NCBI RefSeq assembly: GCF_002087085.1
Contig: NZ_MWQY01000007.1
Location: 124,001-188,000, forward strand
Direction: 5' to 3'
DNA: 64,000 nt
The position numbers were made by a program, and so were the translations under genes. Shown in pieces: positions 25,704-41,547 of the stretch. The notes below the pieces were generated by a model. It did no database searches, had not been told where the DNA came from, and was given only the letters and a program-made list of their open reading frames with translations. The stretch's first letter is position 1; every line of letters begins with the position of its first letter.

Positions 25704-27188
25704 TCAGCCCTCTTCTGACCAGAAGCGTTCGGTAATGATCTTGTCCTCGGTATAAAAATTGACAATCGCCTTGCCCTGGGCCTTGATGTCGGCGAACTGG
25801 GAGTTCTTCATACCGCCGAAGGGAAGGTAGGCCACCGGAGCGGGAATCCCGACGTTCACGCCGATCATGCCGGCCTTGACCTCGATCTTGAACTTCCGGG
25901 CGAACCAGCCGTTCTGGGTGTAGATGGAGGCGCCGTTGCCGTACTGGTGATCGTTGATGATGCCGATTGCCTCGTCCAGGCTGTCGGCCTTCAGAATGAC
26001 CACCACGGGTCCGAAGATCTCGGTCTGGTGGATCTGCATTCCCGGTTTGACCCCGCCGAAAACCGTGGGACCGATATAGTAGCCCTTCTCGTATCCCGCG
26101 ACCTTGATATCCCGGCCGTCCAGGAGCAGTTCGGCCCCCTCCTTGACCCCCGTGTCGATCATCCCCAGGATAAACTCCTTCGCTTTGGCGGAGATTACCG
26201 GTCCCATTACCATGCTCTCGTCGGCCACCGCCGGATCGAGGGGATTGGTGGTGATTACATCCCTGGCTGCCCTGACGAACTCTTCGGTCACCCTGGCGTA
26301 GGTATCGTCCCCGACGCAGACAATGGCGGAGGCAGCCATGCAGCGCTGTCCTGCACAACCGAAACAGGAGGTGATCATGTTCCGGATAACCTCGTTGAGA
26401 CGGGCGTCCGGCATGACCACCAGGTGATTCTTGGCGCCCCCCATGGCCTGGAAGCGTTTGCCGTTCTCAGCGCACTTTCTGGCCATCAGCCTGCAGGTGG
26501 GAGTGGACCCCACCAGGGAGACTCCCTGCACCAGGGGATGTTCCATGAAGGCATCCGCCACAGTCCGGTCACCGTTGATGAGGGTATAGACTCCCGCCGG
26601 AAGTCCCGTCTGATGGATCAGCTCGGTAATGAAGTTCATCGTGTTCGGCACCTGTTTAGAAGCCTTGACGACGAAGCTGTTTCCCGTGGCTATCGCATAG
26701 GGCAGAAACCAGAAGGGGACCATGGCGGGAAAGTTAAAGGGAGCAATCATACCAAAAACCCCCATGGGAAGACGGATCACCTCTCCGTCGATCTCGAAGG
26801 AGGCCCCGATCAGCTTGTCGCCCTGCTGCATCACCGGCATGCCGCAGGCCACCTCGACGTTTTCGAAAACCCGCTTCATCTCCGCCCTGGCGTCAGGCAA
26901 AGACTTGCCCATCTCCTCCACCAGAATGCGGCTGATCTTCTCCTCGTTCTCCTCCAGTAAATCCCGCAGCTTGAAGAGGTAGCTCACCCGCCTGGAGACG
27001 GGAACATCCTTCCAGGAAAGATAGGCCTCGTAGGCTGCTTCAATCGCCCTGTCGGTCTCCTGCCGCGGGGTCAGGGGGACCTGGGAGATCACCTCTCCGG
27101 TGCTCGGGTTTTCAACATCCAGGTAGGACGCGCCGGCGGGATCCACCCACGCGCCGTTTACATAGTTCTTGAGTTTACGGACTGCCAT
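25704..27188 (-). CDS. mmsA: CoA-acylating (methyl)malonate-semialdehyde dehydrogenase
   Basis: APFNFPAMVPFW, VGSTP, MGGAKNH (lacks the ELG glutamate), AGQRCMA, EIFGP, GVNVGIPAP. Confidence 0.88.
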   Translation of the reverse strand: MAVRKLKNYVNGAWVDPAGASYLDVENPSTGEVISQVPLTPRQETDRAIEAAYEAYLSWKDVPVSRRVSYLFKLRDLLEENEEKISRILVEEMGKSLPDARAEMKRVFENVEVACGMPVMQQGDKLIGASFEIDGEVIRLPMGVFGMIAPFNFPAMVPFWFLPYAIATGNSFVVKASKQVPNTMNFITELIHQTGLPAGVYTLINGDRTVADAFMEHPLVQGVSLVGSTPTCRLMARKCAENGKRFQAMGGAKNHLVVMPDARLNEVIRNMITSCFGCAGQRCMAASAIVCVGDDTYARVTEEFVRAARDVITTNPLDPAVADESMVMGPVISAKAKEFILGMIDTGVKEGAELLLDGRDIKVAGYEKGYYIGPTVFGGVKPGMQIHQTEIFGPVVVILKADSLDEAIGIINDHQYGNGASIYTQNGWFARKFKIEVKAGMIGVNVGIPAPVAYLPFGGMKNSQFADIKAQGKAIVNFYTEDKIITERFWSEEG

Positions 27189-27197
27189 TATTTTCTC

Positions 27198-28292
27198 CTA
27201 CTCTCCTTGAATATCTGGATCAGACAACATAAGATCCCGTATCATCTGCAACAGTTTATCATAACCTTCAATAAAAGATCTCAAAGTTCTTCTAGTCGCT
27301 CCAAAAGATTCAAATTCCTCTAGAGTTAATCCCTCTTCATCATAAGCTTTTTGGAAATCCGGGAATTTTCTGTACAGTTCATCGATGATTCTATCATCAA
27401 CAGGATCATCTATTCTGTCCTTAACCGTTATATCAGAAGAATTAAATTTTTTCTGCCATCCATATGGAATAGTCATGGATAATTCTCCACCGATAAATTG
27501 TGACCAATGCATATGGTTTCGATAAGCTGCCGCCAATAAACGGGAAGAATAACCACGTTCTTTAAAAATTTTATAAGCCTTTTTTAGAGTTGCCACCCCT
27601 GCCCATTCAAAATAACCAGGATCGGTAATAATCCCTTTGCGATCAGCAACGATTTTTAACCAATCATCAAGGCGTCCTACCATGATTGTGCAAATAGGAC
27701 TCATTGTCGAGCTATCTATCCCTTCCTTTGCTCTGCGTGAGATTCCTCTTTCCACAGCTTCTGCAACCGCAATACTCTGGGGTACGGTAAAACACACCGT
27801 AGCGTTTATGCTTACACCTTTATACGTAAGTTCTTCTATAGTCTCGATACCGGCCTTTGTAACCGGAATCTTTATGTTATTATTTGGATAGAGAGAAGCA
27901 AAATGAATTGCTTGGTCGACCATAACCTCTGAGTTTCGAAAAAATCTTGGGTTGGTTTGAATTGATAATCTCCCTTTTTTTCCATTACTCTTTTCAAAAA
28001 TAGGATGCAGCAGGATTGCTGCCTTCATAGTCATTTCTTCTATGATTCGCCACGCTAATGTTTCCTCATCGGAATCAGATGATTCATCAATCAATGCTTT
28101 TAACCTGGGTTTCCATTCTTCAAACTCCGCTTTAAGCACATTCCCAACGATAACAGGATTGCTAGTTCCACCTACTGCTCCATTTTCAATGGCATAGCTC
28201 ATTTCATTAACCGAGCATGAGTCGTTCCAAAAATCCGTACATGTTGTCTCTGCCATTTCATGGAGCGGTCCATACAATTTAGCATCTTTCAT
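27198..28292 (-). CDS. Transaldolase family protein
   Basis: WNDS, GGTSNP, KIP (Schiff-base Lys), NATVCF, MVGRLDD. Confidence 0.88.
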   Translation of the reverse strand: MKDAKLYGPLHEMAETTCTDFWNDSCSVNEMSYAIENGAVGGTSNPVIVGNVLKAEFEEWKPRLKALIDESSDSDEETLAWRIIEEMTMKAAILLHPIFEKSNGKKGRLSIQTNPRFFRNSEVMVDQAIHFASLYPNNNIKIPVTKAGIETIEELTYKGVSINATVCFTVPQSIAVAEAVERGISRRAKEGIDSSTMSPICTIMVGRLDDWLKIVADRKGIITDPGYFEWAGVATLKKAYKIFKERGYSSRLLAAAYRNHMHWSQFIGGELSMTIPYGWQKKFNSSDITVKDRIDDPVDDRIIDELYRKFPDFQKAYDEEGLTLEEFESFGATRRTLRSFIEGYDKLLQMIRDLMLSDPDIQGE

Positions 28293-28533
28293 AATTACCT
28301 CTCTTTATTTTATAGCCCTATAAACTGCTTATAAGGCAATTTCTGGTACAAATTATTATGTGTCGTTGTTTTTATATAATCCAGAGGCAATTATACCCTC
28401 TAAGGTTTCCATGGCCTGAGCAACTGTAGTTCTTTTTTGGATTTTTCTGTTACTTTTATTATTGTCTGATAATTTATACATATCGCAATTATAATCATCA
28501 TTATTGACATAAATTCATCTTCCCCAAGGAAAA

Positions 28534-29301
28534 TCACGACACAAGCATTATTATTCCGGTCATACCGAGGACAGCCGATATTATAGGTTTGACATTAAAC
28601 TTACTAAAATAATTGTGAGCCGCATCGCCAATCCATATGCCAAGAAAAAGAAATGGTATCAAAATTGCTGTATCTCGAAAATTTTGCACAGTAAAAGAGC
28701 TTGATATAAAGTAGTTGAGTATTAGAATGGTATTGAAGGTTATCCATAATAAGCTAAGAGTAGATCGAAAGGAACCAAAATCCTTTATAGCTGAGGCAGT
28801 GTATAAAACAATCAGAGGTCCTCCTGAGGCAAAAGCTCCGTGTATTACTCCACCAAGTATTAGCAAGGCATACAAACTCCATCTTTTAACTACACTGAAA
28901 TTATTGATTAGAATCTTGGTTCTATGGGAATTTTTAAATTTTATTATTTTGACTTCAATTAGATTTTTGATAGAGATTATTATAATAAAAATCGCAAGTG
29001 CTTTCTGGAGGAAAGAAGCCTGGAATATCCTGAATATAATTATCCCAAATGGCAATCCAATGGAAACGAAGGCAAGAATAATTAAATATTGCCGGAAAAC
29101 AATCCTTCTCCAATGTAGACATACAATATAAAGAGAGAGAATCCAAGATAAAATCGCTAACGTCGGTATTGCCGCTTTCAGACTAATGATCTGAGATAGA
29201 AAAGGTAAAGCCAGAACTGTCGAACCAAATCCTGTAACAGTTTGAACCAGATGTGTAATTAACACAATAGAACCAGAAGCCAAGATCTGAATAACAGTCA
29301 T
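28534..29301 (-). CDS. TauE/SafE family anion exporter
   Basis: 255-aa membrane protein with TGFGS..LALP and GAFASGGP repeats and FRSTL. Confidence 0.85.
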   Translation of the reverse strand: MTVIQILASGSIVLITHLVQTVTGFGSTVLALPFLSQIISLKAAIPTLAILSWILSLYIVCLHWRRIVFRQYLIILAFVSIGLPFGIIIFRIFQASFLQKALAIFIIIISIKNLIEVKIIKFKNSHRTKILINNFSVVKRWSLYALLILGGVIHGAFASGGPLIVLYTASAIKDFGSFRSTLSLLWITFNTILILNYFISSSFTVQNFRDTAILIPFLFLGIWIGDAAHNYFSKFNVKPIISAVLGMTGIIMLVS

Positions 29302-30509
29302 ATTACCTTTCTCTTGATAATTGAACGTATAAGCTCAAGATCTATTGGAATAATATTATTATTCATTTTGGGATCATCGAGACAAGCATCAAACGCGGCA
29401 AAAGAATCTCCTCTACCATTCGGATGGAACTGGCTTACCATTGCGTTTTCAAGACTGTCAAAATCAGAACCCAAACCCAAATCCGAACGAAGCCTTTTAA
29501 TCGCAACTCCTAGCTTTTTTACTGCGTTATTTATATTACTGCCATCCGCAATGCTCAGCTCCCTTGCAATACGAAAGAGTTTATTAGCAACATACTCATT
29601 TTTCGAGTTAATATCATACACAGCGTCAGTAAAGAAAGCACATGCATAACCATGGGGTACATGCCACATTTCAGATAGAACAAATGAAAGTGCATGAATA
29701 GCAGCTGTTCCAGTCTTATCAAATGCTATCCCAGCTAAGTTTGCTCCACACAATAGCGAATATCGCTCGTTTGCTCCAGGATATCGTTCTTTTTCACTAT
29801 CAGCGGCTTCTTTCCAAGCTTTTCGGATACTGTTATATATCCTTATAAACGCTTGTTCTGCGATACTATCAGAAACTGCTGAAGCATTCTTATTCCACAG
29901 AGCCTCTAAAGCATGGGTTAAAGCATCAAAACCAGTGATCGCTACCAAGAAAGCTGGCAAAGAAGAAACAAGCTCTTCGCACAATATGGCTGCATTTGGA
30001 CGCAGGAGATCAGAAGCTAACGTATGTTTTCTACCACATCCTGATGTGTATACACCGAACCTTGTAACCTCTGACCCTGTTCCTGTGGTTGTGGGAACAA
30101 GTACAAGAGGAATCCCATTTTTTAATACTTTTCGTATCGCATCCCTTCCAAGATACTCATCAAGTTTTCCTTGATTGATTAGAAGCATGGCGACAGCCTT
30201 TGCTGAGTCAAGAGTCGAACCGCCACCGATGCCAATAATCAGATTTGGTTTTAATTTCTTTGCAGACTCAACCATTATGTCTATATCTCGGCATTCAGGA
30301 TTAGGTACAATTCTATCTAAAACAGTTATCTCCTTTTCTATTGAAAGTTTATCCAATACTGTTTCTATAACAGGGTCGCTTCTCGGATCTTTGATAATTA
30401 AGATCGGTCCATCATTAGCGTCCAAATATAATAAAACCCGATTAATAACATCCAAAGAAAAAGTCTTTGTTTCGACAATTTGTACTTGACTTGCCAGGAA
30501 TTCGATCAT
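29298..30509 (-). CDS. Iron-containing (group III) alcohol dehydrogenase
   Basis: PNP, GGGSTLD, PTTTGTGSEVT, DALTHALE, HALS, HG. Confidence 0.92.
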   Translation of the reverse strand: MIEFLASQVQIVETKTFSLDVINRVLLYLDANDGPILIIKDPRSDPVIETVLDKLSIEKEITVLDRIVPNPECRDIDIMVESAKKLKPNLIIGIGGGSTLDSAKAVAMLLINQGKLDEYLGRDAIRKVLKNGIPLVLVPTTTGTGSEVTRFGVYTSGCGRKHTLASDLLRPNAAILCEELVSSLPAFLVAITGFDALTHALEALWNKNASAVSDSIAEQAFIRIYNSIRKAWKEAADSEKERYPGANERYSLLCGANLAGIAFDKTGTAAIHALSFVLSEMWHVPHGYACAFFTDAVYDINSKNEYVANKLFRIARELSIADGSNINNAVKKLGVAIKRLRSDLGLGSDFDSLENAMVSQFHPNGRGDSFAAFDACLDDPKMNNNIIPIDLELIRSIIKRKVI

Positions 30510-30518
30510 TAAAGAACC

Positions 30519-31004
30519 CTATCTCATAGTCCTGGTCTCAAGTTCAACAACTTGATTAAAAGCATTAGTAAGGAAATCTTTCTTGAACTCCATTTTCTGA
30601 GTGAAGGATACCGAAAGCCATGCTTCTACTATCTGTGTTGCAAGAAAAGGGGCTGTTATCCACCCTCCCATAGTGATAATATTAGCATTATTAATAATCT
30701 TAGATCGCTCTGCAGCAAAGACCCCATCCACAACACAGGCATAAATCCCTTTATGCTTGTTGGCTACAATTGCCATTCCCTGACCAGTACCGCATATCAG
30801 AATACCTTTATCCGCCTTTCCCTCTTGGATACATTCTGCTACCTTTGGGGCTTGGATGAAATATGGCTGAGGGTGTTCTTCATCCTCTATTCCAAAATCA
30901 ATAATATTAAGGTCATCTTTTTCTTTCAGATAATCCACAACTGCATTCTTAAGAGGAAAGCCGGATAAATCTGACGCAATAGCGATTGTATTTTCCTTTT
31001 TCAC
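30519..31004 (-). CDS. RpiB/LacA/LacB family sugar isomerase (divergent)
   Basis: IASD.SG, CGTGQGM...ANK, NNAN. Confidence 0.88.
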   Translation of the reverse strand: MKKENTIAIASDLSGFPLKNAVVDYLKEKDDLNIIDFGIEDEEHPQPYFIQAPKVAECIQEGKADKGILICGTGQGMAIVANKHKGIYACVVDGVFAAERSKIINNANIITMGGWITAPFLATQIVEAWLSVSFTQKMEFKKDFLTNAFNQVVELETRTMR

Positions 31005-31936
31005 ATAGCACTCCTATGTAGTACCGCCTGTATAATTGATTCATGACTCAAGCCATAATTCATCTTCAACCATTCTTCTGTTCCAACCTGCCCAAATAAA
31101 TCATCAACTCCAATTCTGACTAATGGTACAGATAGTCCATTTTCTGCTATCAACTCTGCAACTGCACTACCTAGTCCATTTTTTTTCTGATGATTCTCGC
31201 AGGTTAGTACAATTTTAGATTCTTTAATCTCTTTAAGTAACAAATCCTCATCAAGAGGTTTTAATGAAAGAACGTCGATCACAGAAACGTGAACCCCTCG
31301 TTCTTCGAGTTCATTGGCAGCCAAAAGAGCCTCGTTCAGCATAATACCACCCAAAGCCAATAAAAGGACTCCTCCTTCTCCACCATTCTTTACTATTTTT
31401 GCTTTACCAATTTCAAAGGTTTCATCTTCTTTATACAGAACAGGTAATTCCTTCCTGTATAGACGAAAATAGACAGGCCCTGGATAATCTATCACAGATC
31501 TCAATAACCCAATGCATGAAACAGGATCTGAAGGTTCAATAACAGGGAGCCCTGGAATTATTCTCATTAATCCCAAATCCTCGAAGGGCATATGGGTTCC
31601 GCCATTAAAGGCCGCAGCCACACCAGGATCTGTGCCAACAAGCTTAACTCCAAGTTTCGCGTAGGCTGCCGATATAAAGAATTGATCAAATACACGTCTT
31701 GATGCAAAGCAGCCAAAGGTATGCGCAAAAGGTATTTTGCCTACAGAAGCAAGGCCTGCAGCAATACCTATCATGTTTGATTCAGCAACTCCGGCATTTA
31801 TTTTTCTATCTGGATAACTATCAGCAAAAGACGCGGTTGCTCCTGCTTTTCCGAGATCAGCATCTAAGAAAACAATGCGTTTATCTTTCTCAGCTGTTTT
31901 AAGAAGTTCATCCATGAAAACAGTTCGCATATCCAT
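31001..31936 (-). CDS. Transketolase, C-terminal subunit
   Basis: DADL, GVAESNM, THMPFED, GPVYFRL, LKPLD, ENH...GLGS. Confidence 0.92.
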   Translation of the reverse strand: MDMRTVFMDELLKTAEKDKRIVFLDADLGKAGATASFADSYPDRKINAGVAESNMIGIAAGLASVGKIPFAHTFGCFASRRVFDQFFISAAYAKLGVKLVGTDPGVAAAFNGGTHMPFEDLGLMRIIPGLPVIEPSDPVSCIGLLRSVIDYPGPVYFRLYRKELPVLYKEDETFEIGKAKIVKNGGEGGVLLLALGGIMLNEALLAANELEERGVHVSVIDVLSLKPLDEDLLLKEIKESKIVLTCENHQKKNGLGSAVAELIAENGLSVPLVRIGVDDLFGQVGTEEWLKMNYGLSHESIIQAVLHRSAM

Positions 31937-31960
31937 AGCTTCTACACTCCTATTCCTCGC

Positions 31961-32791
31961 CTATCTTAGTTCTCTATCTAATGCTTCTAAGGCGTCTTTT
32001 AACTGAGCTGGACTTACTGACATATTATGACTATTAAGATCACCCTCAGCAAATGAGCATCCTTTTCCTTTAATTGTATCAAGGATTATCATAGTAGGCT
32101 TTTCCTTGCTATTTCGTGCAGAGCATATAGCCGAATCAATGAGTTCATGATCATGTCCATCAGCCCTTAGAACATTCCACCCAAAGCTTTGCCATTTTCC
32201 TTCAATATCACCTAGATCCATAACCTCTTGAGTAGGTCCATCAATCTGCATTTTATTGTAATCTGTAAATGCGATAAGTCGTTTGAGCCTGTATTGTGAA
32301 GCAAACATAGCAGCTTCCCAAATTTGTCCTTCGTCAGTCTCACCATCTCCAATAATGCAGTATATCCATCCATTTATCCCATCTATTTTATATCCAAGAG
32401 CCATCCCACAAGCTGCTGACAACCCTTGACCAAGTGAACCTGTAGTCATATCTATTCCAGGGGTTAAATTCCGATCGCAATGGCTGGGCAGCCGAGTTCC
32501 CCCACAATTAAGAGTTAGCAACCACTCCTGCGGGAAAAAACCAACCAGAGAAAGCGTTGCATAAAGAGCCGGTCCAGCGTGTCCCTTCGAAAGTACCAGC
32601 CGGTCACGATCTATTTTTGATGGATTTTGTGGGTCGCAATTTATCCAACGTCCATACAAGACTGCAAGAGCATCAATAATGGACATGGTACCTCCGACAT
32701 GCCCTACCCCAAGATTTCCTATTCCCTGTAAAGCCAACTTCCGTATTTCTGTAGCAAATCTTACAGATTCGCCGATCTCAGTGGCAGTCAC
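31961..32791 (-). CDS. Transketolase, N-terminal (ThDP-binding) subunit
   Basis: GHVGG, LSKGH, TGSLGQG, GDGE...GQIWEA...N, TIKGKG. Confidence 0.93.
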   Translation of the reverse strand: MTATEIGESVRFATEIRKLALQGIGNLGVGHVGGTMSIIDALAVLYGRWINCDPQNPSKIDRDRLVLSKGHAGPALYATLSLVGFFPQEWLLTLNCGGTRLPSHCDRNLTPGIDMTTGSLGQGLSAACGMALGYKIDGINGWIYCIIGDGETDEGQIWEAAMFASQYRLKRLIAFTDYNKMQIDGPTQEVMDLGDIEGKWQSFGWNVLRADGHDHELIDSAICSARNSKEKPTMIILDTIKGKGCSFAEGDLNSHNMSVSPAQLKDALEALDRELR

Positions 32792-32846
32792 CTCAACAAC
32801 TCCTATTTTTATAAGATTCTCATCACTGTAAAGAAACGCTTTCTTT

Positions 32847-33692
32847 TTATTTTATAGCTCCCATCGTCATCCCTCGTATTACATATTTTTGCAGGAAAAT
32901 GAACGCGATGATAATCGGGAGACTAGCAAGGGCTGAAAAAGACATCATTGTGGTCCAATCTGTAACAAATTCAGAAAGTAAACTGTAAATAGCAATAGTT
33001 AAAACCCTGTTGCTCCATGATTCAACAACAATCATCGCAAAAAGGAATTCATTCCAAGCCAAAAGGAATGTATATAAACCTGTACCGACCATTGCAGGGA
33101 AACTAATTCGAATCGTTACGCGCCATAACGCCCCAAGTCGTGTACATCCGTCAACCATTGCCGCTTCCTCAAGCTCGATGGGCAGTTCCTGAAAATAATT
33201 CCTGAGCATTAAAATGGAAAAAGGCAGGCAAAAACTAAGATACACTAGAATAAGAGATAGGAGATTGTCATAAAGACCCAGTTTTACAACGACCTGGAAA
33301 TATGGCAATGACAGCAATACTAACGGGAAGGTCTGAGTAGCAAGGAGAAAAAGGATTAAAGCTCTTTTCCCGCGGAAATTAAATCGTGCAAGACCATATC
33401 CCGATAAACTTCCAAAAAAAAGAGCAAGTAAGGTAACAGTTAAAGAGACAAAATAACTGTTCCAAAAGCATCGTAAATATCTCAAGTTAGTTAAAACTTT
33501 TTTATATGAATCAAATGTGAATTTTTCGGGAATCCATGTCGGTGGAATCTTCAATACTTCAACATTCGGTCGGAAGGAAACAGTGACCATCCATGCAACT
33601 GGAAGTAGAAGGACTATACCAAAAGAGAGGAGTACAGCATAAAGAGTAAGACGGGAGATTTTCCGTTGAACCCTGTAAGATGACTTAATCAT
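32847..33692 (-). CDS. Carbohydrate ABC transporter permease (MalG-like)
   Basis: LEEAAMVDG EAA loop, WNEF. Confidence 0.93.
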   Translation of the reverse strand: MIKSSYRVQRKISRLTLYAVLLSFGIVLLLPVAWMVTVSFRPNVEVLKIPPTWIPEKFTFDSYKKVLTNLRYLRCFWNSYFVSLTVTLLALFFGSLSGYGLARFNFRGKRALILFLLATQTFPLVLLSLPYFQVVVKLGLYDNLLSLILVYLSFCLPFSILMLRNYFQELPIELEEAAMVDGCTRLGALWRVTIRISFPAMVGTGLYTFLLAWNEFLFAMIVVESWSNRVLTIAIYSLLSEFVTDWTTMMSFSALASLPIIIAFIFLQKYVIRGMTMGAIK

Positions 33693-34605
33693 TCCCAGTC
33701 TCTCCTTTTTTTAAATTACGTATATAGAAAGTACTAAATATCAACATTACCAGGAACATTATAACGGCCTCAGCGGCAGCATATCCCCATTTGAGAGATC
33801 GGAAAGCAAGGTTATATATATGAGTAGTCATGACCTCTGAACTATTCATAGGACCGCCGCCTGTCATGGCAAATATGATATCAAAATGTCTAAAAGTCCA
33901 AATTATATCCAATAATCCTACAGTAAACATTGTCCCTTTCAGTGCAGGGATTGTGATGTAAAAGAAACTTTTAATTGGAGATGCCCCATCAATTCTGGCA
34001 GCTTCATACAGCTCATCAGGGATCCCTTGTAATGCAGCCAGTAACATTACCATCGTAAAAGGATAACCTCTCCAGATATTTACTACTGTAACGGATAATA
34101 ACGAAAGATTTGGATTCCCAATCCAGTTGATGCTCTGGCCGCGTCCACTTAGGAGATTAAATGACGTCAGTAAACCATTCAACATTCCGAAAGGGTTATA
34201 TATGAGTATCCAGATCATTGCGGCAACTGTGGGTGCCAAAAGCCAAGGGATTATCAAAAAACCTCTGAACAAACTACGAATATTAGAATTGATATGTTGA
34301 TTTAGGATCAAAGCCAGGCTCAGTCCGATAAGGAAATGAAATATCACACTGTTTATGGTAAAGTAACTTGTCTGTAATAAAGCTTTCCAGAAAACAGGAT
34401 CAGAAAAAAGTTGAATATAATTTGATAATCCGATAAACTCTCTTTCCAGAAGATTCCCTTGAAAAAAACTCAGAACCATTACTTGAATTAGTGGATACAC
34501 TAAAAGTACAAGTAAAATAATAATGCCGGGTAGAACAAAAAAATATGCCTGCATTTTCTTAAGAGTAAAAAATTTATTGCTACGCAAAATGCCTGTTTCG
34601 ACCAT
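33685..34605 (-). CDS. Carbohydrate ABC transporter permease (MalF-like)
   Basis: FIGLSNY, LYEAARIDGA, MTGGGP. Confidence 0.93.
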   Translation of the reverse strand: MVETGILRSNKFFTLKKMQAYFFVLPGIIILLVLLVYPLIQVMVLSFFQGNLLEREFIGLSNYIQLFSDPVFWKALLQTSYFTINSVIFHFLIGLSLALILNQHINSNIRSLFRGFLIIPWLLAPTVAAMIWILIYNPFGMLNGLLTSFNLLSGRGQSINWIGNPNLSLLSVTVVNIWRGYPFTMVMLLAALQGIPDELYEAARIDGASPIKSFFYITIPALKGTMFTVGLLDIIWTFRHFDIIFAMTGGGPMNSSEVMTTHIYNLAFRSLKWGYAAAEAVIMFLVMLIFSTFYIRNLKKGETGND

Positions 34606-34624
34606 AAATCTACCTTCTAATTTA

Positions 34625-34662
34625 CAATATGCGGGACCATAGTCTTACAGCCCCGCATATTG
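34625..34662 (-). promoter_or_regulatory. Intergenic stem-loop between the SBP and permease genes (partial terminator or mRNA stabiliser)
   Basis: 11-bp inverted repeat caatatgcggg (34625-34635) / cccgcatattg (34652-34662). Confidence 0.6.
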
Positions 34663-34671
34663 GCGATCAAT

Positions 34672-35961
34672 TTACTTAGAAATTAGTTCTTCCCATTTTA
34701 TAGCTGCATCATCAAGTGCTTGTTTTGCGCTCTTTTTTCCATCAACAAAGTTCTGCACTTCTATAGTCATGATTCGATTAAGTTCAACCTGGTATGGAAG
34801 ATGAGGAATTGCCATAGCATTCGGAAGTCCCATCTGTTCGATAAAAACTTTCATATATTTATTTTCTTTTACAAAAGGTTTATCGGCTACAATCTTGTTT
34901 CCTGGCAAATCACCTGTTGCTCGACACCAGATTTCTCCGCCTATCGGACCGGAGATAAACTTAACAAGTTCCCAGGCTCCCTCTAATTTCTTTTCATCCT
35001 TTGCCGTACTCGAGGGTATGGCAAACAATGATCCTCGTACTATGGTTCCGTTTGTCTCTCCCCAAGGAAGAGTAGTAATTCCGAAATCCTTATCAGGATT
35101 CAGGTTTTTTTGTATTGCTACTCCCCAAGGGCCTTCAAACATCATAGCTATATTCCCAGCGGCAAAATTCCCACGTTTTTCCTTTTCACCATTCTGAAGA
35201 ATACCCGGAACAGAAGTTTCGCTCTCAACCATCAGTTCCTTATAAAACTCAAGAGCTTTTACACCAGCGTCACTATTAAATACTGGCTTATTGTTTTCAT
35301 CGACGATCTTTGCCCCAGCTTGAAACATGAGAGGGTAGATATCATACGTCATATTCGTAGGAGGTTCTGTTGCAAGAGTTCCGGTGAACGCATACTGGTT
35401 CTTTTCTGGTTTTGTAACCTTTTTAGCTATTTCCGTCAGTTCAGCCCAACTTTTCGGGGGCTGACTGATCCCCTCCCGTGCAAAAATATCCGTATTATAG
35501 TATAGGGCTACACAACCTGCATGCAGAGGTAGAGAATATCGTTTACCCTCAACCTGCATCTTAAACGCATCATAATACTGATCAAGAAAATTGGCCGGTT
35601 CTTCAGCGACAAGAGGGTCTAGAGTAGTTATGATCTTGGACTGTGCAAATTCTCCAACCCAGTCTACCTGAACAAGGATAACTTCCGGTAACTGTTGCGC
35701 CTGCGCTAATGTAACAACCTTGTCATGAAAACCATTAAAAGGATGATCGACAAGGGTCAGAGTGAAGTCTGGATTGGCTTTCTCAAATTCTGCTTTAAGC
35801 TCATCCATAACCTCTTGACCAACTTCTGTTGTTTTCCACTGCATCCATCTGATCTCTGTCTTTCCATCCGCAGTAGCTTCCTGTCCCCCGCCAGCCCAGA
35901 CGTTCCCAATGGCAATCGTAATAATTATTATTACAGCCACAGTTCTGAGTTTTTTCCTCAT
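34672..35961 (-). CDS. Sugar ABC transporter substrate-binding protein
   Basis: Signal peptide ending WAGGGQE; LYYNTD, PPKSW, AMMFEGPW. Start ATG 35961 follows GGGAGG. Confidence 0.92.
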   Translation of the reverse strand: MRKKLRTVAVIIIITIAIGNVWAGGGQEATADGKTEIRWMQWKTTEVGQEVMDELKAEFEKANPDFTLTLVDHPFNGFHDKVVTLAQAQQLPEVILVQVDWVGEFAQSKIITTLDPLVAEEPANFLDQYYDAFKMQVEGKRYSLPLHAGCVALYYNTDIFAREGISQPPKSWAELTEIAKKVTKPEKNQYAFTGTLATEPPTNMTYDIYPLMFQAGAKIVDENNKPVFNSDAGVKALEFYKELMVESETSVPGILQNGEKEKRGNFAAGNIAMMFEGPWGVAIQKNLNPDKDFGITTLPWGETNGTIVRGSLFAIPSSTAKDEKKLEGAWELVKFISGPIGGEIWCRATGDLPGNKIVADKPFVKENKYMKVFIEQMGLPNAMAIPHLPYQVELNRIMTIEVQNFVDGKKSAKQALDDAAIKWEELISK

Positions 35962-36050
35962 GTATGCCTCCCGAACAATTTTTTTTACAATTCTCATAGT
36001 TAAGAACTGCACTGTTAGAAGAATAAACCCAAAATTCTGGATTCACAATT

Positions 36051-36096
36051 GTACCAAAGTACGCAATTGGTACTAATCCATAGAGTACTTAAGTAC
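36051..36096. promoter_or_regulatory. Putative response-regulator operators (GTAC-N4-GTAC twice) in the divergent promoter region
   Basis: gtaccaaagtac (36051-36062), half site ggtact (36069-36074) and perfect palindrome gtacttaagtac (36085-36096). Confidence 0.5.
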
Positions 36097-36121
36097 CTAC
36101 GCAAGAAAATAAGTTACTTTT

Positions 36122-37354
36122 ATGTTGTTCCGTGTTATAAATATTGATGTGAAGAGTGCTTTTTCAGCGGAAAAAGTCATTTGTCTAACCGCGTTATTAG
36201 GCTATTCCGTAGCTGCTTTACTTTTTCTATTCAGTCCACGAATAATACTATTACCAAAATACTGGGTTCAACAGGTACTAGTATTACTCATCATCGATTG
36301 CGGTTTGTCTATGATTCTATACCGGACAAAAAACTCAGTCGGCATAATCTGTATACTCTTATTGGAATACGCAATACTTTTGCTCATTAGTTACCCTGAA
36401 AGTGACGACCTACAGATTGCGACTGTGTTAATGTTCGTTCTTATTAGTGAGTCAAATTTCAAACTAAAAGGCTTTTCAGGATTCTTTCTTTCTGTAATCT
36501 TTATAGGAGTATTCGTAATAAGCCGACCTTCCGAACCTATCTGGTCATCAAACTTTTTTACGCCATCAGCAACGGATTTGATTGCCTTTTGTTTCTTTAG
36601 TCTTTTTACCTCCTCTTTAACAACTCTTCTCCACATGTATCAATCGATAGCAGTGCGAGAAATGCAGACGATTAAACAACTGGAAAATAACATCCATAAA
36701 TTGACAAATGTAAATATCGATTTTCAAGATTATGCAGCGGCAATCGGTTTTCAATCCATTGAAAATGAACGAAAAAGAATCTCACGGGAAATCCATGATA
36801 CAATTGGATATTCCCTTACAAATATAATAATGATGATGGAAGCAGCTTCAGATATTACTCCACAAGATTCTGAAAAGCTCTCATCTCTTATAGAAATCAC
36901 AAGAACCCAGGCTCAGATGAGTCTGCAGGAAACTCGGCGTGCTCTTCGTGAGCTTCGAATAAATGAGCAAGAACAAATTTCTGGACAAAAGGCGATTAAT
37001 AAACTTATTACAATCTTTGAGAAAGTAACAGGTGTTGAGGTTTCAATCGAATATGGAAATATACCATTAGTACTACCAGACGAGGTAAATAGTTTTTTGT
37101 ATAGAATGATTCAGGAAGGGCTAACAAATGCATTTAAGCATGGTAAGGCAACCAGAATCTCAATTTATTTTTGGATGACCGAACAAAAGATTTTATATAT
37201 CCATGTCCGCGATAATGGAATAGGAGACACAGGGGAGATAATTGAAGGAATTGGCATTGCAGGAATGAAGGAACGAGCAGAGAAATTACACGGTAAGGTA
37301 GAAGCGCGGTACGTATTCGATGGTTTCCAGTTATTTGCAGAAATTCCGCTTTAA
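36122..37354 (+). CDS. Membrane sensor histidine kinase (HisKA_3/NarX-like)
   Basis: About six TM helices, ERKRISREIHDTIG, QEGLTNAFKHG, DNGIG, GIAGMKER. True start may be GTG 36149. Confidence 0.92.
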   Translation: MLFRVINIDVKSAFSAEKVICLTALLGYSVAALLFLFSPRIILLPKYWVQQVLVLLIIDCGLSMILYRTKNSVGIICILLLEYAILLLISYPESDDLQIATVLMFVLISESNFKLKGFSGFFLSVIFIGVFVISRPSEPIWSSNFFTPSATDLIAFCFFSLFTSSLTTLLHMYQSIAVREMQTIKQLENNIHKLTNVNIDFQDYAAAIGFQSIENERKRISREIHDTIGYSLTNIIMMMEAASDITPQDSEKLSSLIEITRTQAQMSLQETRRALRELRINEQEQISGQKAINKLITIFEKVTGVEVSIEYGNIPLVLPDEVNSFLYRMIQEGLTNAFKHGKATRISIYFWMTEQKILYIHVRDNGIGDTGEIIEGIGIAGMKERAEKLHGKVEARYVFDGFQLFAEIPL

Positions 37355-37390
37355 TTAAATTGTTAATCAAACTATTAGGGGTGCAATATC

Positions 37391-38086
37391 GTGATGGATT
37401 CTATTCGGGTATTGATGGTCGACGATCAGTTACTTTTTGTTGAGAGTCTGAAGGCAGTAATTGAAACGAGAGCAGATGATATATCCATAGTTGGAATAGC
37501 TAGTGACGGAAATGAAGCAATAACCATGGCCGAGCATTTTCGACCTGATGTTATTCTCATGGATGTGCGTATGCCTTCGTTGGACGGGGTAAAAGCAACC
37601 AGGATTATACATGAAAGATTTCCGGATATCCAGGTAATGATGTTAACAACTTTCGATGATGATGAATATGTTTGCGAAGCTCTTTCCTGTGGGGCAGTCG
37701 GCTATCTTTTGAAAGATATTCCGCCAAGTGAGGTAATTGCATCAATTCGAGCAGTTAAAGAAGGGTCGGTCTTAATTTCTGCTTCAGTAGCATCTAAAAT
37801 CATTCGGATAATTTCTTCTAGTCATATTAAAGAAGAACATGAAAAGAATAGCGAAAAATTACCCGATGAACTAAAAGACCTCAGCCACAGAGAAAGGGAA
37901 GTACTTGTTCTCTTATCAAAAGGTTTGAACAATAAAGAAATTGCTGACCGTCTGTTTTTAGCGGAGCAAAGTGTTAAGAACCTTGTGAGTGTAATTTATT
38001 CAAAAATTGGTACTCATAGCAGGCTTGAAGCTATGCGCATCGTAATGAAGACAAATCTTTTTGATTCCGACCCCGATAACGATTAA
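37391..38086 (+). CDS. NarL/LuxR family response regulator
   Basis: VDDQ, MDVRMP, LTTFDD, LSHREREVL...NKEIA HTH. Confidence 0.95.
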   Translation: MMDSIRVLMVDDQLLFVESLKAVIETRADDISIVGIASDGNEAITMAEHFRPDVILMDVRMPSLDGVKATRIIHERFPDIQVMMLTTFDDDEYVCEALSCGAVGYLLKDIPPSEVIASIRAVKEGSVLISASVASKIIRIISSSHIKEEHEKNSEKLPDELKDLSHREREVLVLLSKGLNNKEIADRLFLAEQSVKNLVSVIYSKIGTHSRLEAMRIVMKTNLFDSDPDND

Positions 38087-38100
38087 CTTAATCCTGGGAA

Positions 38101-41100
38101 TCAGGATTTCAAAGCTTTGCTCAGTAATAGAATAGTGTCCATCCAATGTTGGAGTTCGGCGACTGCTTTTTCCAAGTCCGACAGCTCTTCGTCCTGGTGA
38201 GCAATATAATGGTTCCTAAAATCATTAACCCGGCTCACTGCCTGGAGCATATGCTTAGCACCGTTGAAGTCGAACACCTTTCTCACAGCCGAAAAGACTC
38301 CTCCGATCTCCAACGTATCTTCCAAGGCAAACTGCAGACAGTTCCGAAGTAATCCCGTCGGGGAGAGGCCGTTCCCGAAGACAATAGTCCGTTTGAGGTT
38401 GTATCCAAGCTGTTCGATCCGTTTCTGTTCTCCGTGTTCAAGGTCCGGAGGTAGCTTCGGAGTAAACCACCGCTTTTGATCCTCCACGGATCGTGGCAGG
38501 AGAGGCTCCAGCTGTTTCTGTACCACTCGGGTGCATACGTCGTCTATGGGGCCAAGAAGAGCGGTGAACGCCGGAGCGTAGCTCTTCGATTTCTTGTTGG
38601 CGAGGAACTCGGCCAGTTGTCCTGCCTGGACGACGGCATCCTTGTACCGGTCAGGAAGATACTGGAGGGTTTCTTCGGCGACCCACTTCAGGGTTTCCTC
38701 CTCTTCCTCGTCGTAGGGTTGCGCCTGTGCGAAAAGCGGCAAGTCGGGCATCCGTTCTTCGTCCAGGAGGGACTGGAGGCTCGGTTCGCACGCACGTGCA
38801 AGGGCTGATATCTCTGTAGCCGTTGAGCGTTTGTAGACCCCCTCCTGTATGTAGAGGTACTGCCATTTGGTACCAATCTGAGAAGCGGACTCGCACCAGG
38901 CTACCGCAGCTCGGGCTTTGCGGGGTACATCCCGGTCTTCCCTGCCTTTGGTCTCAACGAGAAAGTACGTTCCAACCTTGGTGCGGACGATGAAGTCCGG
39001 AGTGTAGAAGGCCAGCATCCCGGATCCCGCAATGTAGTCGATCCGGAGGCACTGGGGACCGGCATTCTTGGCGAAAGCGGCGACATCCGTTGCCTGGGTA
39101 TCCGTAAACTGAGCAAAGCCGAGCTCGAGGCTGCGGTTGCAGGGAACGAGGTTGAATGGCGTGCGGTCCGCCTGGATTGTCGGATGCTTCTCACTGTGAG
39201 TGACCTGATAGGGCTTCCACTCCGAGAGCTTCATGGCATCCGGCAGATGCGACCGTTCCTGCCGCTTCGTGATCCGGGATCGGATAAGAGGTACGAACAC
39301 AGCCCTGACATGCTCGGCAACGTCGGAATCGCCGATCCGGTTGGCGAGCTCCTGATCAAAGATGCTTGTCGGATTGTCGAACAGCACTGATTCGAAAAAG
39401 TGCTGAAGCAGGGGTGCCAGTTGCTTGTGCAAGCCCCGGACCCGGCAGACTTCTTCGAGCTCACGGGTGTAGTAGGAAATTGCTCCGGCACCATTGCTTA
39501 GGAGCGGGAGGTGAAGCTTCATCCGTTCGACGACTTCATTGGTAAGGAGTTGTCGTCCCTCGTACTCCAACTCCGTTGACGTAACACTTCCAAGGGGTAG
39601 CTTCGTGTACTTCGACTTCAACCACTCCTGCTCGATATCCTTCTTGGACAGACCGGAGACGTCGGCAACGGTCCGATAGCCGGGTGCCAGGCTTGGAACC
39701 TCGAGTTCCAACTCATCCAGGTCCTTATCCGGGTTATCGACATCCGGAAAGATCGAAACGGTGGTGCGAGGAACCTTCTCGGCGTCGACCTCGTCGATGA
39801 ACAGCCCTTCCTGCTGAAGCTCCTGCCGATAGAGGGAGGTGAACTTGGGATGATCGACGATCGTCAGCATCTCGTGTGCGCCGGAGCTTCCCGGAGGCGT
39901 CATTCGACGCAGACCGCGCCCCATTGTCTGTTCAGGAAGGATGTTGGCCTTGGAACTGTACGGCCTCAACGGAACGATCGTGGTAACGTTTCTGACGTCC
40001 CATCCTTCACGAAGCATCAGGACAGACACGATGCAGCGATAGGGGCTTGAGTTCTGATCGAGCTCTCGGCTGAGTTTGCGAAGCTCATTGAGATCGTCGT
40101 CACTGATGTCCTTCTCGGATTCCTCAAAGACGTAGTAGGCGCTGTCTCCACGCCCCTTCTTCTTCAGCTTGCCCTTGAGGTTTGTGTGAAGGTTGATCGT
40201 ACGACCGTTGAGCTCTTCAAAGGTGGGGTCGGTGTTGAGCCGTTGCGCGATCTGGTCGGCTTCCGTCGTATCGGAACACATCACGAAGAGCAATGGCTTC
40301 TTACCGCTTTGCTCCCATTCTTCTTTGCTCTTCTGCCATCGACCGTAGCCGAGGCGTAGATGAGTGTCGTATCGGTAGGCTGCATTGTCTGATGCGCCTT
40401 CATTGAGTGCCTGGCTGGTCCGTCCAATGATCGGCGTCTTGACGATACCGGAATCAACGGCTTCTCCCAGGGGCGTGTCACAGATGATGTGCTTGAAGAG
40501 CTGGCCCTTGTTGTCTTTGGGCGTGGCGCTCAGATCGATCTGTGCAAAGATACCGGTGCCACCGGATTGCTCGATGGAAGTGTGAAGGTAGGCGATTGCC
40601 TCGCTCCAGGCCGAACCGGGGTCCCAGACGTGGTGAGCCTCGTCGTTGAGGACCATAATCGTACGCTTACCAGCAATACGCTCCCGGAGCTCTGCACCGG
40701 AGTTAAATACCTTCGCCTTCTGAACCGTAGGACCCATGAAGGAGTGGAACTCTGCCTGCTTCTTGCCCTTCTTCTTGCTGTTGTCGTAGAGGCGATGAAT
40801 ATTCGTCAGGTAGATCGTCCCGCCGATACTGTCCGGAGCAGCTTCGTCCTGGAGCACAACGCTCATGTTCCAGTCGCCCTTCCATTCCGGGGGAATGAGA
40901 GGGTCGGTCTCGAAGATCTTGCCGTCACCGAAATCTTCCCGCAGACGCTCGTACACGGTGAGGTTTGGAGCGATGATCACGAAATGCTTCGCGGCGTTCG
41001 AGTAGGATTCTCGGAGGTTGTGAAAATAGCTCCACACAACCGCCAGGCTCATAATCTTGGTCTTTCCGGCACCGGTAGCGATCTTCTCCGCGTACCGTGG

Positions 41101-41547
41101 CCACAGATCCTCGTCAGGGGCAATACCGTAAGCGGCTTCCTTCTGCTGATCTGTTCCAAACTTCTCATAAAGTCCGCTCAATGTCGGGCTGTTGTGGATC
41201 TCGGCCAAATAGACGAGGGTCTCGATGGCTTCCCGCTGGCAGAAGTAGTAGCGGAAATCATACTCTTCCCCAGCAGGCGTGGTCTGCCGGTGGGCGCGCT
41301 GAAACCAGTACCCGAAGAGCTGGCGGGTCGTATCACTGGCTCCAGGGTAGTAGTTCTCCCGCCATTCGCTCACCTCACGTCGTAGACTCTGAACGATGGA
41401 GATCGAAGACCTGCGACGACCTGTCTTGATTTCAGATTGCCCAGCCTGCTTCCTTGCCGCTACACGATGAGAGTTGGGCTCTTCCCACGGCTCATAGAGT
41501 GGTTCGATGGCTCCAAGATTGATCCCGGCATTCGTTGATTCAGCCAC
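38101..41547 (-). CDS. Type III-like restriction enzyme Res subunit (SF2 helicase plus PD-(D/E)XK) with extra C-terminal domain
   Basis: ATGAGKT, DEAHH, SATP, LREGWD, EQTMGRGLR; nuclease YTPDFIV...LVETKG; ~220 additional C-terminal residues containing RNHYIAH. Confidence 0.88.
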   Translation of the reverse strand: MAESTNAGINLGAIEPLYEPWEEPNSHRVAARKQAGQSEIKTGRRRSSISIVQSLRREVSEWRENYYPGASDTTRQLFGYWFQRAHRQTTPAGEEYDFRYYFCQREAIETLVYLAEIHNSPTLSGLYEKFGTDQQKEAAYGIAPDEDLWPRYAEKIATGAGKTKIMSLAVVWSYFHNLRESYSNAAKHFVIIAPNLTVYERLREDFGDGKIFETDPLIPPEWKGDWNMSVVLQDEAAPDSIGGTIYLTNIHRLYDNSKKKGKKQAEFHSFMGPTVQKAKVFNSGAELRERIAGKRTIMVLNDEAHHVWDPGSAWSEAIAYLHTSIEQSGGTGIFAQIDLSATPKDNKGQLFKHIICDTPLGEAVDSGIVKTPIIGRTSQALNEGASDNAAYRYDTHLRLGYGRWQKSKEEWEQSGKKPLLFVMCSDTTEADQIAQRLNTDPTFEELNGRTINLHTNLKGKLKKKGRGDSAYYVFEESEKDISDDDLNELRKLSRELDQNSSPYRCIVSVLMLREGWDVRNVTTIVPLRPYSSKANILPEQTMGRGLRRMTPPGSSGAHEMLTIVDHPKFTSLYRQELQQEGLFIDEVDAEKVPRTTVSIFPDVDNPDKDLDELELEVPSLAPGYRTVADVSGLSKKDIEQEWLKSKYTKLPLGSVTSTELEYEGRQLLTNEVVERMKLHLPLLSNGAGAISYYTRELEEVCRVRGLHKQLAPLLQHFFESVLFDNPTSIFDQELANRIGDSDVAEHVRAVFVPLIRSRITKRQERSHLPDAMKLSEWKPYQVTHSEKHPTIQADRTPFNLVPCNRSLELGFAQFTDTQATDVAAFAKNAGPQCLRIDYIAGSGMLAFYTPDFIVRTKVGTYFLVETKGREDRDVPRKARAAVAWCESASQIGTKWQYLYIQEGVYKRSTATEISALARACEPSLQSLLDEERMPDLPLFAQAQPYDEEEEETLKWVAEETLQYLPDRYKDAVVQAGQLAEFLANKKSKSYAPAFTALLGPIDDVCTRVVQKQLEPLLPRSVEDQKRWFTPKLPPDLEHGEQKRIEQLGYNLKRTIVFGNGLSPTGLLRNCLQFALEDTLEIGGVFSAVRKVFDFNGAKHMLQAVSRVNDFRNHYIAHQDEELSDLEKAVAELQHWMDTILLLSKALKS

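Follow-up and report, generated by a model that had tools for sequence, protein, structure and literature searches.

A putative mosaic of a sulfo-transketolase-like core and a transaldolase-MmsA pair on an acquired island of a spirochaete genome

Introduction

Which substrate, and how many pathways, are served by ten co-oriented genes that combine a sugar importer, a split transketolase, a long transaldolase and a CoA-acylating semialdehyde dehydrogenase without any sugar kinase? This array lies at 25704..36012 of a 64,000-nt stretch of a spirochaete genome (positions 124,001 to 188,000 of contig NZ_MWQY01000007.1, RefSeq assembly GCF_002087085.1), which we call the window and to which all coordinates refer unless a contig is named. 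Sulfoquinovose (SQ) is among the most abundant organosulfur compounds. The sulfo-transketolase (sulfo-TK) pathway for its breakdown, comprising SqvD, SqwGH, SqwI, SqwF and SqwE, was originally reported from Clostridium sp. MSTE9 (see PMC9594981 and PMC12890257), and a review places sulfo-TK in Spirochaetes as well (PMC12890257).

A preliminary description of the window had read all ten genes as one sulfo-TK-like pathway for an already anionic sugar. Here we propose, with about even confidence, that the array is instead a mosaic carried by an acquired island, in which a sulfo-TK core devoid of its upper genes was joined, at the resident mmsA gene, to a separate transaldolase-MmsA module. The earlier reading stands for the homology of the core, for the missing upper genes and for a side example concerning the transaldolase, but not for the single ten-gene pathway or for the substrate of the importer.

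Results and discussion

Layout of the array

The ten open reading frames (ORFs) proposed earlier were all recovered on the minus strand at the coordinates listed here, and every gene family assigned to them was upheld by Pfam and NCBIfam.

34672-36012, minus strand: ABC substrate-binding protein (SBP), CUT1 type (Pfam SBP_bac_1, E 8e-42)
33685-34605 and 32847-33692, minus strand: two ABC permeases (Pfam BPD_transp_1)
31961-32791, minus strand: tktN, N subunit of a split transketolase, SqwG/SqwH-like pair (Pfam Transketolase_N)
31001-31936, minus strand: tktC, C subunit of the split transketolase, SqwG/SqwH-like pair (Pfam Transket_pyr, Transketolase_C)
30519-31004, minus strand: RpiB/LacAB-family isomerase, SqwI-like (Pfam LacAB_rpiB, PF02502, E 2.8e-39)
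29298-30509, minus strand: iron-type alcohol dehydrogenase (Fe-ADH), SqwF-like (Pfam Fe-ADH, ADH_Fe_C)
28534-29301, minus strand: TauE/SafE-family membrane protein, SqwE-like (Pfam TauE, PF01925, 69.7 bits, cut-off 32.6)
28293-28533, no strand: AT-rich gap of 241 nt between the TauE and transaldolase genes
27198-28292, minus strand: long transaldolase-family enzyme (TAL_FSA; hereafter TAL), 364 aa, 'F2 type', with Gln112 at the catalytic Glu position
25704-27188, minus strand: mmsA, CoA-acylating (methyl)malonate-semialdehyde dehydrogenase of MmsA/IolA type (TIGR01722, 514.2 bits, cut-off 448.5)
25656-25682, minus strand: terminator-like hairpin directly 3' of mmsA (12-pair stem with 8 G-C pairs, then a T run)

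In agreement with the preliminary description, a Pfam and NCBIfam scan of 15 ORFs in the interval 22791-41547 revealed no kinase, phosphotransferase-system or glycosidase domain. Two gene pairs, tktC/rpiB and Fe-ADH/TauE, overlap by 4 nt, and the hairpin behind mmsA is the sole terminator-like site of the array. The 241-nt gap contains no minus-strand terminator-like site and folds no better than shuffled sequences (z = -0.92). It is one of the features that had been overlooked, together with a two-component system at 36122-38086, a drop in G+C content (GC) at 27200-38100 and the resident status of mmsA. An Rfam search over 25000-45000 returned no match at E<=0.1. Promoter-like sites numbered 21 against a shuffle mean of 30, a count that is uninformative, and no promoter was called.

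The transketolase-to-TauE core is related to sulfo-TK loci

A scan with TktC yielded 80 related loci, mostly from spirochaetes. The gene order tktN-tktC-rpiB-FeADH-TauE recurred in 18 of these, 13 of which encode an isomerase at least 60% identical to that of the window; the arrangement is therefore not a matter of chance. The 4-nt Fe-ADH/TauE overlap was also found in loci L002, L009 and L013, and both overlaps of the window occur together in, for example, L013. In the complete related loci the core is accompanied by a ROK-family regulator and by genes for DUF4867, a GH31 protein and a 445-aa SftI-like protein. On NF007746 (cut-off 553), which we take to be the YihQ sulfoquinovosidase model, the GH31 genes of L013, L021 and L030 reached 826-921 bits, and the 445-aa gene matched the SftI sulfoquinovose-isomerase model with E 5e-61, below the cut-off of that model.

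The isomerase is 62-76% identical to isomerases in 25 of the 80 loci, and at least one SQ marker gene was present in 18 of these 25 loci with an isomerase at 60% or above; four of the seven marker-less ones are contigs of at most 10 kb. Among the remaining 55 loci, SQ markers occurred in only five, all of Bacteroidales type. Across the class, 67 of the 401 genomes had isomerase matches at E<=1e-45, including a typical ROK and GH31 cluster in the same-genus genome G003. These results bear out the suggestion that the transketolase, isomerase, reductase and TauE genes are homologous to the sulfo-TK core, as shown by gene order, overlaps and the presence of the isomerase in SQ-marked loci. The five genes are orthologues of the published core SqwG/H/I/F/E, and by analogy we infer for them the chemistry of that core.

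In some loci, an aldehyde dehydrogenase, a SucCD-like ligase and a Na/sulfate-symporter-like protein stand in place of FeADH-TauE, an arrangement that fits the oxidative sulfo-TK variant outlined in PMC12890257. The Fe-ADH of the window is predicted, by analogy with SqwF, to be a sulfoacetaldehyde reductase. It scored 148.5 bits on the NCBIfam SarD model, for which the cut-off is 700, and its best relatives in PDB are methanol dehydrogenases. A metagenome scan with Fe-ADH gave 121 pattern matches, none of which was confirmed as a relative. The TauE gene of the array is the only copy of its type in the genome.

The best relatives of the split transketolase are 64-66% identical and belong to two loci of Treponema metagenome-assembled genomes (MAGs). 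In a FastTree phylogeny of TktC, the window grouped only with L001 and L002 (support 1.0). Both of these loci have the isomerase, and L002 has FeADH-TauE. The L001 SBP is 55% identical to the SQ-cluster SBPs of L013 and L021.

Two further observations concern related loci. In L001, the Treponema MAG locus with the transketolase closest to that of the window, a 774-aa ORF (2086-4410) lies between an SQ-type SBP and a ROK gene; it occupies the position of the sulfoquinovosidase in other clusters and matched no Pfam or NCBIfam model. Loci L008, L026, L027, L028 and L048, from Bacteroidales and relatives, carry a second form of the core in which the isomerase is only 34-37% identical to that of the window. 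SftI-like and DUF4867 genes were found in four of these five loci, and the sole regulator annotated among them is of LacI type, in L027.

The upper sulfoquinovose genes were not found

The preliminary description had noted that SQ isomerase and sulfoquinovosidase are absent from the cluster. We confirmed this and did not find them elsewhere in the source assembly, which is 97% complete. Tblastn searches of the assembly retrieved nothing when the queries were GH31, DUF4867 and short-TAL proteins taken from L030 and L021. For the YihQ-type GH31 sulfoquinovosidase there was neither an NF007746 match nor a tblastn match in the assembly, and the matches in the genome to the NAD-dependent sulfoquinovosidase type were generic GFO-family proteins only, at 26-30% identity. 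No SQ isomerase of SqvD/SftI type is present in the window, and the sole NF048012 match in the genome, on contig C13, scored 66 bits against a cut-off of 700. The short sulfofructose (SF) transaldolase (SqvA/F1 type), sought with the L021 short TAL as query, gave no tblastn match in the genome at E<=1e-5. PF07221 had no match in the genome, with a sensitivity that is uncertain as the control was silent in E. coli. PF16161 had none either, and no control genome responded to this model, so that the absence of DUF4867 rests on tblastn.

The 66-bit SftI-like match lies in a 524-aa frame within C13:1084-5265, where its neighbours are an IolN-like gene (35% identity) and a distant TAL paralogue with the signature NQKNSII (27%). 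The region possibly encodes another ketose pathway.

Importer and regulator

The importer genes differ from those of other sulfo-TK clusters. When the SBP of the array was compared with SQ-cluster SBPs by tblastn (E<=1e-10, half of its length covered), the only matches were four loci at 19-25% identity. Its best PDB match was 5ci5, a generic sugar-binding protein (E 1.4e-29), and no SQ-binding protein was matched in PDB at E<=1e-10. On this comparison, the SBP is not of the SQ type that is found in other sulfo-TK clusters. One spirochaete family has orthologues at 63-81% identity, the contigs of which are too short to be informative, and orthologues at 47-62% were found in 68 metagenome loci, where genes for a zinc-type alcohol dehydrogenase, a short-chain dehydrogenase/reductase and a DeoR protein were also encountered around them. 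A transketolase-like gene upstream of SBP orthologues (family f24) was considered as a functional link; Pfam identified it as dxs in L153, and the link was therefore dropped.

The cluster contains no ATPase gene. A MalK-like ATPase is encoded at C3:80347-81432, with 54% identity to the MalK-type query. The regulator next to the array is a two-component system, where related sulfo-TK loci have a ROK-family gene instead.

The array occupies the left end of an acquired island and joins resident DNA at mmsA

The interval 27200..44391 (~17.2 kb) is a horizontally acquired island in this spirochaete genome, and the ten-gene array lies at its left end. Its other genes are as follows.

36122-37354, plus strand: histidine kinase, divergent from the array (Pfam HisKA_3, HATPase_c)
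37391-38086, plus strand: NarL/LuxR-type response regulator (Pfam Response_reg, GerE)
38101-41547, minus strand: restriction endonuclease, 1148 aa (NF046055, BPTD_3080-family, 270 bits, below cut-off; Pfam ResIII)
41559-43634, minus strand: adenine DNA methyltransferase, 691 aa (models NF008572, NF050803)

The genome has a GC of 53% (mean of 5-kb windows 0.533, standard deviation 0.037). In 300-nt windows, GC ranges from 0.31 to 0.49 over 27200-38100, the left 10.9 kb of the island including the two-component pair at 36122-38086, and from 0.53 to 0.59 to the right of 38400; within mmsA it is 0.57-0.61 (about 0.59). The right part of the island, with the restriction enzyme and the methyltransferase, is host-like in GC, and its DNA (38101-43634) found no match in five same-genus genomes. 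No integrase was found on the island.

Synteny defined both ends. The DNA of G004, the same-genus genome nearest to the window, can be aligned at 93% identity as far as 27199 and no further; on the right flank, synteny returns at ~44540 with G004 (87% identity) and at ~44590 with G002. A metagenome contig of a close relative joins 27199 directly to 44392. Its shorter side spans only 23 letters, which is weak alone, and it agrees with the synteny. MmsA is 98% identical to the G004 protein and 94% identical to the G002 protein. In both genomes a GntR gene lies upstream of mmsA and divergent from it, the order in G002 being mmsA, GntR, uracil permease and deoC, and the interval occupied here by the island holds the GntR gene in G002 and, on the mmsA side, in G004. 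Sequence comparison thus indicates that the ~17.2 kb took the place of the GntR regulator gene of mmsA, and that mmsA, with its host-like GC, is a resident gene to which the other nine genes were added by import.

Similarity to G004 and G002 begins only ~12-20 nt 5' of the mmsA ATG, and the DNA further up is the intact C-terminus of TAL. The island joined within ~20 nt upstream of the start codon of the resident mmsA, removing the GntR regulator, and TAL arrived with the island. As the join removed this regulator, transcription of mmsA would now have to proceed from the island.

Low-depth contigs of run X1 provided a second view of the junction. They match 27837-30918 with 1/319, 10/609, 7/382, 4/346 and 1/343 differences, that is, 98-99.7% identity to TAL, TauE, Fe-ADH and rpiB. 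In one 532-nt contig, which spans the TAL/mmsA join with 62 and 54 letters per side, the mmsA part shows 50 differences in 324 places. The same TAL-mmsA join is therefore present in a second lineage with another mmsA allele. These data fit a donor in which TAL-mmsA was already located 3' of the core and in which recombination took place where mmsA starts. Given a possible relation of X1 to the source sample, we take it as supportive, not independent. X1 is uncovered at 38544-43191, as are X2, X3 and X4 over most of the island, and those parts were left uninterpreted.

The uracil permease and deoC genes, the resident neighbours of mmsA, are found here at 44589-46871. In this genus, the native role of mmsA may lie in pyrimidine/deoxynucleoside breakdown rather than in sugar catabolism. 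Between holA and mmsA, a plus-strand ORF of 408 aa (24401-25627) matched no Pfam or NCBIfam model; its counterparts are 74% identical in G004 and 54% in G002.

TAL and MmsA form a two-gene module found next to inositol genes

Gln112 of TAL aligns with the catalytic Glu of the PDB transaldolases 3r5e and 3clm, so that the Asp/Glu/Lys triad of the TalB type is incomplete. This Gln and the residue set D24/Q112/K141/N163/T202 are common to all 27 long TALs compared. The position of Met204 is occupied by Phe in TalB and by Tyr in fructose-6-phosphate aldolase (FSA). In a tree, the TAL of the window is sister to those of two same-genus genomes (support 96/95) and falls within the starred clade of eight rows, six of which are mmsA-adjacent. 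It is 57-73% identical to TALs that are paired with mmsA or located in iol operons versus 50% to the TAL of the L021 SQ cluster.

TAL is present in 75 of 301 genomes of the class. None of the 20 TAL loci fetched contains the sulfo-TK isomerase, TauE, an SQ marker or an Fe-ADH above 25% identity. An MmsA-type gene adjoins TAL in seven or more further spirochaete loci, L087, L088, L121, L122, L137, L159 and L160 among them, and the same-genus loci L087 and L088 share the layout GntR-TAL-mmsA-GntR. In L136 (G165:C2), the TAL-MmsA pair adjoins IolB, IolG, IolD and IolE, all above their cut-offs; in L140 (G043:C1), TAL lies inside the operon IolG-IolD-IolE-IolG-TAL-IolB-like-MMSDH (methylmalonate-semialdehyde dehydrogenase); and in L124, TAL is 3' of IolN and IolO-like genes. 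A TauE gene upstream of GntR-TAL-mmsA in G001 was examined as a possible TauE-TAL link and discarded, as it is unrelated to the TauE of the window (BLASTP E 0.053).

These contexts argue that TAL and MmsA constitute a separate, widely conserved two-gene module. Because the module occurs without sulfo-TK genes in 20 of 20 TAL loci, the ten genes do not look like one pathway, and the preliminary claim to that effect is further weakened by the resident mmsA, 98% identical to that of an island-free relative. As a side example, the preliminary description had proposed that cleavage of 5-dehydro-2-deoxygluconate by TAL would give malonate semialdehyde. This idea gained ground, as the TAL type sits in iol operons next to IolA. 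By gene context it is the best-supported reading of the pair, since malonate semialdehyde, the substrate of MmsA, is what remains after removal of C3 from that ketose.

IolD is present in 65 of the same 301 genomes, 35 of them with TAL. In 23 of these 35, TAL and IolD are within 20 kb on one contig (coordinates as read). No match to IolC over the cut-off was obtained in the L136 and L140 genomes, and an IolC-like kinase of at least 282 bits was found in only 17 of the 65 IolD genomes; 23 of the other 48 carry the Gln-type TAL, often less than 20 kb from IolD. Most inositol clusters of the class may therefore end in a non-canonical way. In our literature searches, no paper was found that proposes a role for the TAL-MmsA pair or for transaldolases of iol clusters, and the biochemistry of the pair appears to be undescribed so far.

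Proposed function of the mosaic

By analogy with the sulfo-TK pathway, the split transketolase would move a C2 unit from 6-deoxy-6-sulfofructose to glyceraldehyde-3-phosphate, giving xylulose-5-phosphate. The RpiB-type isomerase would turn the resulting sulfo-tetrose into its ketose, which transketolase would then cut again, and the sulfoacetaldehyde remnant would be reduced to isethionate and exported. No kinase would be needed, because phosphate enters with glyceraldehyde-3-phosphate. We suggest that the core lost the ROK regulator, the SQ-type SBP, DUF4867, the sulfoquinovosidase and the SQ isomerase, and that a two-component regulator and an importer whose family otherwise goes with kinase-dependent sugar clusters took their place. 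We further infer that the cell takes up a ready-made ketose, for which neither a glycosidase nor an aldose-ketose isomerase would be needed; our best guess for the imported substrate is a sulfonated ketose such as sulfofructose. In parallel, the Gln-type TAL would probably, judging by gene context, cleave an unphosphorylated anionic ketose or move C3 from it, for example converting 5-dehydro-2-deoxygluconate to malonate semialdehyde, which MmsA would oxidise to acetyl-CoA. We regard the core as a member-like sulfo-TK variant that lacks two of the defining upper enzymes, and we do not file it as a complete sulfo-TK pathway.

Several of our observations speak against this proposal. Fe-ADH and TauE are only 35-43% identical to their same-position counterparts in related loci, and no SQ marker gene is visible in L001 and L002, the contigs of which are both short. 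For the inositol side, an IolC-like gene of at least 282 bits is present in 12 of the 35 genomes with TAL and IolD, which rules out TAL as a strict replacement for IolC, and 25 IolD genomes have neither TAL nor IolC. Within the genome of the window, there was no match to IolB or IolE, the matches to IolD and IolG were general-family ones at 24-29% identity, and IolD gave none at E<=1e-150; the best TIGR04378 match reached 29 bits. Furthermore, the tight co-oriented layout, the loss of the mmsA regulator and the arrangement seen in X1 also fit a single functional unit.

The transketolase signature offers no help to the proposal either. Alignment to PDB 6yaj gave the residues Arg4, Ala31, Asp103 and Arg161, with Ala31 and Asp103 replacing the phosphate-binding Ser and His of ordinary transketolases and both Arg residues retained. 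'RAFDR' instead of 'RSFHR' was proposed as the signature of SF-transketolases in PMC11659671. We rejected this motif as a marker of sulfonate use, as Asp103 is present in all 80 related loci, including 50 without any SQ-related gene; the Asp103-type signature marks a wide transketolase clade.

The importer speaks against a sulfonated substrate. A 470-aa class-II-aldolase-like gene, to which NCBIfam gave no name, lies 5' of the SBP in 29 of the 34 loci with room upstream, and a PfkB kinase lies 3' of permB in 16 of the 30 SBP-family loci with room downstream. This context points to a neutral, phosphorylated sugar as the substrate of the family. Neither the aldolase-like gene nor a close PfkB was found in the genome of the window, and specificity within the SBP family may still differ at 50-60% identity. 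The preliminary description, which had assumed an already anionic substrate, had itself named kinases in homologous clusters as an argument against that assumption; for the importer, such kinases are what we found.

Alternative explanations

A single, bifurcated sulfosugar pathway, in essence that of the preliminary description, is possible, if unlikely. In such a pathway, transketolase would release sulfoacetaldehyde and TAL sulfolactaldehyde from imported sulfofructose, Fe-ADH would reduce the aldehyde for export through TauE, and MmsA would oxidise part of it to sulfoacetyl-CoA for redox balance. The malonate semialdehyde used by MmsA has the same shape as sulfoacetaldehyde, and the ten genes are co-oriented with the only terminator-like site behind mmsA, which itself has been deprived of its GntR regulator and promoter region. 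X1 shows the same arrangement of TauE side, TAL and mmsA in a second lineage. In addition, an F2-type transaldolase is present in the L021 SQ cluster, an F2 candidate is reported as SQ-induced in Faecalicatena (PMC11659671), and PMC12890257 describes an oxidative sulfo-TK variant whose sulfoacetaldehyde dehydrogenase is CoA-acylating. However, that variant employs another type of aldehyde dehydrogenase together with an ADP-forming ligase and the Na/sulfate-symporter-like protein, and its proteins were not found in the genome by tblastn at E<=1e-6, save for one aldehyde dehydrogenase match at 23%. Nor was the short SF-transaldolase found there. The TAL-MmsA pair stood apart from any sulfo-TK gene in every TAL locus fetched, the TAL of the window is nearer to the mmsA-paired and iol TALs than to that of L021, and mmsA is the resident allele of a genus in which the relative with the 98% identical protein has no sulfo genes.

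A bolder form of this idea seems distinctly less probable to us. The ten genes would here provide a route, free of kinase, glycosidase and SQ isomerase, for a sulfonated ketose such as sulfofructose that is released by neighbouring microbes. A ketohexose-type importer would have been repurposed for the sulfosugar, flux would be split between transketolase, giving sulfoacetaldehyde, and the Gln-type TAL, acting as transaldolase or aldolase and giving sulfolactaldehyde, and MmsA would have been recruited as a CoA-acylating sulfoacetaldehyde dehydrogenase beside the reductase, so that isethionate and sulfoacetyl-CoA balance redox.

We are equally doubtful that the substrate is not sulfonated at all. 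In that case the core would remove C2 units from a ketose brought in by the importer, either neutral or carboxylated, for example a keto-uronate or a rare ketohexose, and Fe-ADH would reduce the glycolaldehyde, acetaldehyde or glyoxylate that is left. The ties of the SBP family to PfkB and the aldolase-like gene in metagenome loci would suit such a substrate, as would the generic 5ci5 match obtained in place of an SQ-binding protein, the occurrence of Asp103 in 50 loci devoid of SQ-related genes and the want of an SQ marker gene in the transketolase clade formed by the window, L001 and L002. Conversely, the isomerase is 62-78% identical to those of clusters with YihQ-type GH31, the closest locus, L001, has an SBP related to those of SQ clusters, and the translationally coupled FeADH-TauE pair was kept, a TauE-family anion transporter having no obvious role for a neutral product.

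Finally, the cargo could be an incomplete and currently useless fragment of an SQ cluster, carried along with a restriction-modification system, in which only the accidental TAL-mmsA fusion has an effect; upper pathway genes that were not found genome-wide, the presence of the restriction enzyme and methyltransferase on the island and a GC so far from that of the host as to suggest a recent arrival would agree with this, yet we consider it very improbable given that all twelve low-GC ORFs are intact, that the cluster has its own importer and regulator, and that near-identical X1 copies with another mmsA allele indicate persistence of the arrangement in more than one lineage.

Comparison with known systems

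The array shares with the sulfo-TK pathway, as described in the sources cited above, a split transketolase, an adjacent RpiB-family isomerase, a metal-dependent alcohol dehydrogenase, a TauE-type transporter and the lack of a kinase, and with spirochaete sulfo-TK clusters also the gene order and overlaps. Unlike these systems, it has no SQ isomerase, DUF4867 gene, sulfoquinovosidase or ROK regulator, and it has another SBP family, a two-component regulator and a setting in an island of foreign GC.

The preliminary description had counted a long-type transaldolase among the additions to the sulfo-TK gene set. The union of the two has been published before: Faecalicatena sp. DSM22707 (PMC11659671) and Caproiciproducens (PMC13219744) have bifurcated sulfo-TK/sulfo-TAL clusters that likewise combine a transketolase module with a long transaldolase-family protein. 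Residues D23, Q111, K140, N162 and T201 of the Faecalicatena 'F2' candidate correspond to D24, Q112, K141, N163 and T202 of the TAL of the window, a correspondence at the level of single residues (PMC11659671). Unlike the array, these clusters also include the bona fide short SF transaldolase (F1) together with a sulfoquinovosidase, an SQ isomerase and a candidate mutarotase, and, as reported, F2 has no MMSDH-type dehydrogenase next to it.

With respect to the modules taken singly, two textbook systems are pertinent. In the classical myo-inositol pathway of Bacillus subtilis, the end steps are catalysed by the kinase IolC, the aldolase IolJ and IolA (= MmsA). The array has an MmsA of IolA type, and the same TAL type is found in the iol operons of L136 and L140. 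It differs from the classical pathway in having, at the place of the kinase and of the class II aldolase, a transaldolase-family enzyme of Schiff-base type, and in that the genome of the window has no IolB or IolE and only weak general-family matches to IolD and IolG. FSA of E. coli belongs to the transaldolase family and has Gln in place of the catalytic Glu. This Glu-to-Gln change is shared by the TAL of the window, which, unlike FSA, belongs to a long subfamily of ~360 aa whose gene context points to unphosphorylated anionic ketoses; the discussion in PMC11659671 also raises the comparison with FSA.

Surveys of SQ degraders use markers such as yihQ, to which an orphan sulfo-TK core with another importer would be invisible. 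If this orphan core is active, there may be bacteria that live on scavenged intermediates of the pathway, or on other sulfonated ketoses, and not on sulfoquinovose itself. Likewise, kinase-free cleavage of 5-dehydro-2-deoxygluconate, if true, would be a new end-game for inositol catabolism and would also explain the SQ-induced 'F2' protein of Faecalicatena.

Beyond the window, the genome encodes four further split transketolase pairs that are 30-42% identical to that of the array (C12:7733-9994, C12:36076-40371, C2:169229-171000 and C1:296915-298617). An RpiB-like gene adjoins one of these pairs, and an Fe-ADH is located close to another. Sugar routes based on transketolase thus seem to be numerous in this host.

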